Below are positions 63,291-64,000 of a stretch of 64,000 nt of DNA, piece by piece. Location of the stretch: the NCBI GenBank assembly GCA_035221665.1, contig CM069163.1:17856001-17920000 (forward strand), given 5' to 3'. The stretch is from Okamejei kenojei (Eukaryota). The notes under the pieces were generated by a model, which worked only from the letters and a program-made list of their open reading frames with translations, made no database searches and was not told the origin of the DNA. Position 1 is the stretch's first letter. Every line of letters starts with the position of its first letter. A program made the translations under genes and the position numbers.

Positions 63291-63725
63291 CTACAGCAGG
63301 CAGGTTTGCCAGTGGTACACGGGTGGGTTTAAAATAAACAGTGGGGGGGTGGAGTCAACAACGTGGAAGCGTACGCGTGCAGTTAACGGGAAAGAGTGTA
63401 GGAAAGGTCACGTTTAAACTAACAGGGCAGGGGGATGGGAACCAATGCAGGGAGAGAGAGGAAAGGAAGACATAAGTAAAAGGTAGAAGGGAGATAGGAA
63501 AAACAAACTTGAAAGCTTTGTGCCTTAATGTGAGGAGCTTTCGTAATAAGGTGGATGAATTGAACGTGCAGTTAGTAGTTAAGGAATATGATATAGTTGG
63601 AATTACAGAGACATGGCTCCAGGGTGACCAAGGCTGGGAGCTAAATATGCAGGGGTATTCAATATTCAGGAAGGATAGACAGAAAAGAAGAGGAGGTGGA
63701 ATTGCTGGTTAAAGAGGAGATTAAT

Positions 63726-63779
63726 GGGGTGGGAGGTTGCAACCTTCATATGGTCCGCCCTGTTTCAACGAATGCAATC
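63726..63779 (+). ncRNA. Minimal HDV-like ribozyme motif
   Basis: P1 GGGGTGG/CCGCCCT with first-pair G.U, P2 GGTTGCA/TGCAATC, P3 ACC/GGT, 7-nt L3 TTCATAT, J4/2 CGAA. Confidence 0.78.
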
Positions 63780-63864
63780 GACCTGGTGTGCACAATCAAA
63801 TAAGATCAAATAGAACAAGTTGTCCTACAACTTTAGGCTGTGCACGCCACACGCAAGAAGAAGA
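63726..63864 (+). mobile_element. Short non-autonomous retroposon with (AAG)n tail and 5' HDV-like ribozyme
   Basis: TSD aggagattaat(g) at 63715-63726 and 63865-63876. Tail gcaagaagaaga. No tRNA A/B boxes seen. Confidence 0.85.
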
Positions 63865-64000
63865 AGGAGATTAATGCAATAGCAAGGAGAGACATTAGCT
63901 TGGATGCTGTAGAATCGGTATGGGTAGAACTGCGAAATAGCCACGGGCAGAAAACGCTTGTTGGAGTTGTATACAGACCACCCAGCAGCAGTAGGGAGGT

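Follow-up and report, generated by a model that had tools for sequence, protein, structure and literature searches.

A 139-nt retroposon in the window, the whole stretch of 64,000 nucleotides from the skate Okamejei kenojei that was analysed, belongs to a family of short elements that descend from a LINE. The copies are bounded by target-site duplications (TSDs), begin with a covarying double-pseudoknot fold of the HDV type and have a 5' segment that is complementary to the cognate 3' end. The family comes from a Vingi-like LINE by internal deletion, and we think it probable that in its RNA the head cleaves itself, a helix (the clasp) joins the two ends and the LINE protein inserts the product.

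The insert and its host site have the following features.

63491 to 64000, + strand: disrupted ORF for the endonuclease of a host LINE, split by the insert
63715 to 63725, + strand: left TSD, 11 bp
63726 to 63864, + strand: short element, a copy of subfamily A, with genome-wide matches near full length
63855 to 63864, + strand: (AAG)n tail, common to the short element and its partner LINE
63865 to 63875, + strand: right TSD, 11 bp

The sequence-only reading had measured 138 bp for the insert, and recounting of 63726-63864 gave 139 nt. Its TSD of 11-12 bp was recovered as 11 bp with one ambiguous G. For the host, a CR1 endonuclease ORF had been named. The endonuclease fragment was confirmed; it carries a frameshift just upstream of the insert and matches Pfam Exo_endo_phos with an E of 0.0027, which is below the family cut-off. 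By its motifs we take the host LINE to be CR1-type. No empty host site spanning both flanks was found among the genome loci examined.

The genome (2.76 Gb) was then searched for the family that had been proposed. All 40 scored matches were 94-100% identical and nearly full length, and the exact patterns for the ribozyme core and the 3' end matched 11,995 and 9,095 times, respectively, with 0 matches for the control patterns. When the first 30 copies were taken by their 3' end, not selected for the head, 26 began at the same G (G1), in agreement with the claim that the predicted cleavage site coincides with the 5' boundary. Of 78 distinct copies, 55 had recognisable TSDs, which measured 9-20 bp and in most cases 11-15. 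With its own TSDs, its tail and many dispersed copies the element is of the SIDE type, a bipartite non-autonomous LINE. The copies fall into two main subfamilies, which are told apart by position 8 (linker), by position 45 (CGAA or CUAA) and by their middle part. The element was also present in contigs of all 24 sequencing runs listed (13 studies, 10 coded organisms), and four of these runs, examined as contigs, had the same two boundaries and variants as the genome. One short copy (L031) has a small inverted duplication recreating a 5-bp P4-like hairpin, and at L145:1002-1138 and L407 short elements are inserted within copies of their own partner LINE.

The head of the window copy has the following elements, numbered from G1 as in the CPEB3 ribozyme.

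63726 to 63779, + strand: predicted P4-less HDV-like ribozyme fold, from descriptor, covariation and CPEB3-equivalent numbering
5' of G63726, + strand: predicted cleavage site
63726-32 with 63755-61, + strand: P1, with G1.U36 at the first pair
63733-34, + strand: J1/2
63735-41 with 63773-79, + strand: P2
63742-44 with 63752-54, + strand: P3
63745-51, + strand: L3
C63747-G63762, + strand: P1.1, a single pair
63763-68, + strand: 6-nt stub in place of P4
63769-72, + strand: CGAA (J4/2)
C63769, + strand: predicted catalytic C
63736, + strand: A11G change, giving G.U in P2 and permitting 63733-37 to pair with 63742-46, a predicted misfold
63749 to 63750, + strand: C24T and G25A, by which the window copy loses the G25.U20 metal-site wobble

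Every helix of the sequence-only reading, together with J1/2, L3, the stub and CGAA, was found again at these positions. P1, P2 and P3 are nested in the order of a double pseudoknot and covary, and P1.1 is formed between L3 and the base following P1. The P4 helix is absent; 6 nt separate G37 and C44 in the short element and in the partner LINE. A descriptor search, which had been suggested as a check, gave a divided answer: with a relaxed L3 it found the site, whereas the strict-L3 version missed the window copy. In the 64-kb window the relaxed descriptor matched a single site; dinucleotide shuffles, 10 wide and 30 compact, had no match, and a looser descriptor had 0 matches in 200 control windows. 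The Rfam models for HDV and CPEB3 expect a P4, and scanning of the insert with Rfam gave no HDV or CPEB3 match even at E<=10. Pseudoknot-free folding of the 54-nt head resulted in an unremarkable energy (z -0.17) and did not recover the HDV-like fold. The missing Rfam match and the ordinary folding energy would suit a chance fit of the ribozyme-like order in an ordinary repeat. The zero count in the 40 shuffled and 200 control windows argues against this, and the covariation described below, seen in eight families precisely at the 5' end of the element, effectively refutes it, so that we give a chance fit almost no credence.

The heads of the family were compared in a sample of 70 gapless copies that is biased by how the copies were found. 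All 17 pairs were present in 46 heads, the core (G1 pair, U20, G25 and catalytic C) in 50 and both in 31; C44 was kept in 68. The window copy lacks G25 of this core. Frequent variants lie at tolerant or CpG sites, namely 8 (linker), 32 (U-A or U.G), 42 (loop) and 45 (CGAA or CUAA). An A17.C29 mismatch in P3 occurs in 539 copies, compared to 11,995 with U29, and the C29 copies are possibly a small lineage that moved despite the weakened P3. In J4/2, CUAA is found in the LINE and in subfamily B and CGAA in subfamily A (window 63769-63772). The UAA in J4/2 lies outside the long frame of the LINE; R2 SIDEs lose a stop codon in J4/2 (PMC3414825).

The window copy differs from the family at head positions 11, 24, 25 and 42. 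G11, which is found in 4 of the 70 heads, allows an alternative hairpin of -14.4 kcal/mol, compared to -12.4 for P1 plus P3; in a copy with A11 the hairpin reaches -11.0. The ATAT in L3 had been read as CpG decay of ACGT that removed the equivalent of G25, and this reading holds because most copies have TTCACGT as their L3 (C24 in 66 of 70, G25 in 56 of 70). The G25.U20 wobble has a role as a metal site in the CPEB3 ribozyme (PMC4836649). Judged by the three changes A11G, C24T and G25A, the window copy is probably crippled, being dead or slow.

An autonomous LINE sharing both ends had been predicted, and one was found. It was detected with a pattern that excluded full-length copies of the short element, for which 100 of 807 matches were listed. 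A foreign upstream sequence recurred in 2 of the 100 listed matches and defined the LINE family. Stepwise extension in the 5' direction uncovered a broken single ORF with endonuclease and reverse transcriptase (RT) and without RNase H. The copies share the tail and are 5'-truncated, with 543 3' ends and 46 candidate 5' regions, many of which start with, or inside, the ribozyme head. The short element is composed of the first 77 and the last 40 nt of this LINE.

63726 to 63802, + strand: part from the LINE 5' end, 86% identity over 77 nt, compared with L194
63825 to 63864, + strand: part from the LINE 3' end, 97.5% identity over 40 nt, containing the last codons, the stop, a short UTR and the tail
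63817 to 63833, + strand: 7-bp inner hairpin at the deletion junction, not in the LINE in that form

Since both ends derive from one autonomous LINE and no ORF is left, the element is an internal-deletion derivative of the SIDE type, and the term SINE-like of the sequence-only reading does not apply. A true SINE with a Pol III-type head derived from tRNA, 7SL or 5S was rejected, as such a head is absent and the ends come from the LINE; ARAGORN found no tRNA head on the short element. A theta ribozyme was rejected as well, with no adjoining tRNA by ARAGORN and a retroposon instead of a phage context. The loci L106 and L111 are older, intermediate deletion forms. The LINE head already lacks P4, which excludes a ribozyme that shrank in the short element only, and the P4-less form arose in the partner LINE, from which the short element inherited it.

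The derivation from a LINE of the Vingi/RTE type had been proposed as well, and the partner is Vingi-like by its architecture and by its motifs. The closest intact protein, P0001 (1019 aa, 77% identity in RT), and three relatives have an APE endonuclease and RT, no RNase H and a single compact ORF, which is the layout of Vingi (PMC13708176). The atlas and PDB searches with the partner proteins returned no named clade reference. RTE has the same domain layout, and our preference for Vingi over RTE is an assumption made on these motifs. In L171 (G000:C7:70068258 onward) the frame is open from the second ribozyme base through the 5' region into the start of the endonuclease, with an in-frame ATG at the border of J4/2 and P2 that may bear on translation of an uncapped RNA. 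The LINE copies L152, L170, L172, L185, L363, L371 and L403 have 5' inversions or internal deletions. Such copies place the head beside distant parts of the element and are a ready source of short derivatives.

Five more Vingi-like LINE families and one cut copy were found by a protein search of the genome, at the following loci.

V2: L343-L345, L352, L361, L366-L370
V3: L357, L358, L371-L373, near-identical copies that look young
V4: L404, L409
V5: L391-L398
V6: L399-L402, L406, L410
L408: listed beside the V2-V6 loci

Each of V2-V6 has its own HDV-like head, including a P4, and an AAG tail. Like V2-V6, two LINE families from metagenomes have the fold in letters of their own, with a true P4. 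The second metagenome scan comprised 78 loci; the single-protein metagenome scan and the viral scan gave no related loci. A scan of prokaryote genome bins yielded 47 loci (L289-L335), mostly partial or distant, whose sequences resembling non-LTR RT are probably eukaryotic contamination and were left out of the analysis. A loose descriptor fitted 11 of 16 regions without mismatch and then 8 of 11 further regions. It missed L341, L231, L215, L211, L222, L409, L392 and L408, which are damaged, cut or atypical, and the strict descriptor had 0 matches in the 78 metagenome loci. At L211:424-560 a metagenome Vingi-like head looks HDV-like by eye, with a hairpin in L3, and does not fit the descriptor. 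The P4 slot measures 17-45 nt in all families except V1, which has the 6-nt stub, and a genome search for variants with a long P4 had 12 matches, all of them short-element copies with small insertions.

The stem covariation that had been named as a check was then scored on ten intact heads. In P1, P3 and P1.1, 110 of 110 cells were paired and 7 of 11 pairs were doubly changed; as the rows are related, these figures are not probabilities. P1.1 is C22-G37 in 8 of the 10 rows and U-A in 2. The covariation score was reached by 0 of 500 shuffles. P2 was left out of this count; with 14 rows, including four 5'-cut copies, 4 of its 7 pairs were doubly changed and 89.8% of the cells were paired. The catalytic C and the J4/2 purines were kept in every family parsed. 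The sequence 5' of G1 was unrelated between LINE copies, with an identity of 0.25-0.29 compared to 0.72-0.94 in the head (V1, V2 and V3 with 5, 7 and 4 copies), showing that the element ends at the predicted cleavage point. We conclude that the HDV-like fold is well supported, since families with different letters keep it by covariation.

The sequence-only reading of the insert had not included any pairing of the 5' part with the 3' part. Such a pairing is predicted here by folding and by a duplex test, between two segments that are about 3 kb apart in the full LINEs.

63784 to 63794, + strand: predicted 5' strand of the clasp, from the LINE 5' segment
63839 to 63849, + strand: predicted 3' strand of the clasp, with its end at the terminal motif that precedes the tail

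The 3' half of the element has a stable predicted fold (z -3.0), formed by the 11-bp helix between LINE-5' and LINE-3' segments. The segment that directly follows the ribozyme is the complement of the 3' end of the same LINE, in a fixed register, with 8 bp around a palindromic hexamer in the partner LINE and 11 bp in subfamily A. For the duplex test, the 35 nt after P2 were paired with the 40 nt before the tail motif of natural copies; wider windows were used in the first version. In five families the cognate pair was the lowest in every row and column, and the cognate matching ranked 1 of 120. With eight families, no other of the 40,320 possible matchings was as good as the cognate one, and the cognate pair was lowest in 6 rows and 7 columns out of 8; three of the families were added after the pattern had been stated, the windows were set after the first families and the copies are decayed. 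The best duplex starts 5-8 nt past P2 in 7 of the 8 families, and in 7 of the 8 its end lies 0-2 nt short of the tail motif. Among 500 shuffles, as good a duplex was obtained 5 times for V1, once for fam2, 6 times for fam3, 0 times for V4 and 5 times for V5, a strong result, and 179, 150 and 113 times for V2, V3 and V6, a weak one. Thirty further copy pairs of V2 and V6 had clasp z values from +0.9 to -2.4. Internal windows were as good in 3/287, 1/301, 0/302, 0/302, 0/251 and 4/269 cases in six families, and in 43/309 for V2 and 85/357 for V6.

The complementarity of the ends could also be a by-product of template switching, inversion or palindromes that has no role. The 5' inversions are common among the LINE copies, the V1 and V2 segments contain palindromic hexamers and three of the eight families were no better than shuffles. 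Unrelated sequences, however, take the same register in families whose RT segments have roughly 35-77% identity to a single reference. In 6 of the 8 families almost no internal window is as good as the terminal one, and subfamily A lengthened its clasp from 8 to 11 bp. We therefore regard a mere by-product as unlikely. A helix between the two ends would explain, in our model, why both ends are retained.

Taken together, these findings point to a bipartite derivative that is mobilised by its partner. Following the precedents of R2, L1Tc and RTE (PMC6765202, PMC3414825, PMC4035085), the element RNA would arise within read-through transcripts of the host, and the head would cleave just before G1, free the element RNA and leave a protected 5'-OH end. 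By joining head and tail, the clasp would then likely present both to the LINE protein, which, again by precedent, would insert the RNA by target-primed reverse transcription from the AAG tail. In this way the clasp would favour full-length insertion and explain the retention of both ends. Of 30 short copies, 26 extend to G1 in full, while the LINE family has 46 candidate 5' regions for its 543 3' ends.

The self-cleavage is a prediction, and the absent P4, the one-pair P1.1 and the 2-nt J1/2 speak against it. An engineered ribozyme with J1/2 spacers of 0-1 nt had little activity (PMC4908430). The spacing from G1 to P3 is the same as in CPEB3, and P4-less HDV-like ribozymes cleave in vitro (PMC10879173). 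If cleavage in the P4-less family were slow or vestigial, the fold could serve mainly as a nuclease-proof cap or as a protein-binding site, in line with the minimal P4, P1.1 and J1/2, with the 539 copies that have a mismatch in P3 and with the finding that the ribozyme structure itself raises the use of R2 templates (PMC11331408). In the same R2 study, however, a catalytic-C mutant was severely inhibitory, and none of the parsed families has lost the catalytic C or the J4/2 purines, with C44 almost invariant in the short element. Given also the in vitro activity of P4-less forms, a cap or binding site as the main function seems quite improbable.

A further possibility is that an internal Pol II promoter within the same 77 nt sets the 5' end and that the ribozyme is a back-up, in which case the element would not be promoterless. 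In the Ingi clade, the sister of Vingi, Pr77 combines the functions of a promoter and a ribozyme (PMC4035085). The 23 nt beyond the ribozyme that the short element has kept would fit such a promoter. These 23 nt are explained by the clasp, the letters of the head are wholly different between the families while the fold is kept, and the head is not derived from a tRNA. We thus consider a promoter to be very improbable and prefer a ribozyme head that is released from read-through transcripts.

Ribozyme-headed deletion derivatives are already known from R2 SIDEs and NARTc. The R2 SIDEs and the R2/R1 hybrid SIDEs of Drosophila likewise combine an HDV-like head with a LINE 3' end and are mobilised in trans; they belong to the R2 clade, are specific for rDNA, have about as many copies as R2 or fewer and carry a large ribozyme (PMC3414825). 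In contrast, the skate element is dispersed in more than 10,000 copies of 139 nt with a P4-less head of 54 nt. NARTc, RIME and SIDER of the trypanosomatids are dispersed derivatives of an APE LINE of the Ingi clade with an active head (Pr77), but their partner has an RNase H, their 77-nt head has a P4 and is also a promoter, and their hosts are protists (PMC4035085). Vingi LINEs share the single ORF with APE and RT and without RNase H, and their bipartite derivatives, for example Vingi-1_EE, share the internal deletion with both ends kept (PMC5786205). The minimal HDV-like ribozymes theta and drz-Mtgn-1 are double pseudoknots without P4, too; nearly 99% of these minimal forms are found in gut phages, often beside tRNAs, and the eukaryote search of that study covered human, mouse and protists (PMC10879173). 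The skate ribozyme differs in heading a vertebrate retroposon. With CPEB3 it shares the one-pair P1.1 and, by number and letter, G1.U36, U20, U21, C22, A23, G25, U26, G28, G37 and U38, whereas CPEB3 is single-copy and intronic, has a P4 and was shown to be active (PMC4836649).

A search of article texts found no report of the 139-nt family, of a Vingi ribozyme or of ribozyme-headed derivatives with Vingi-like hosts, and within the same scope no P4-less vertebrate form and no end-to-end clasp. Elements that now go under the name Vingi may contain some of the ribozymes validated in 2009-2011. PMC5786205 lists ribozymes in six clades, Vingi not being among these, and leaves unexplained why bipartite derivatives come from a few LINE clades only; PMC5753468, PMC3391268 and PMC3747384 provide background only.

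With our results, at least six families of Vingi-like LINEs in a single genome have HDV-like heads, and a vertebrate is found to hold more than 10,000 copies of a predicted P4-less ribozyme, a form that reports have until now placed almost exclusively in phages. The clasp offers a directly testable answer to the both-ends question raised in PMC5786205. Vingi-1 and RTE-1 are used as templates for RNA-based gene insertion that are flanked by both UTRs (PMC13708176), and a ribozyme with an end-to-end helix would give a concrete rule for such templates. We see about an even chance that Vingi-like RNAs in general carry a conserved end module, consisting of a self-cleaving HDV-like head and, directly after it, a helix to the bases before the tail, and that their protein recognises this clasped form and needs both ends in a good template. 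If this is true, it explains why the clade spawns bipartite derivatives and why these insert at full length, and the 139-nt family would be a minimal template provided by nature, from which a design rule for gene writers based on Vingi could be taken.
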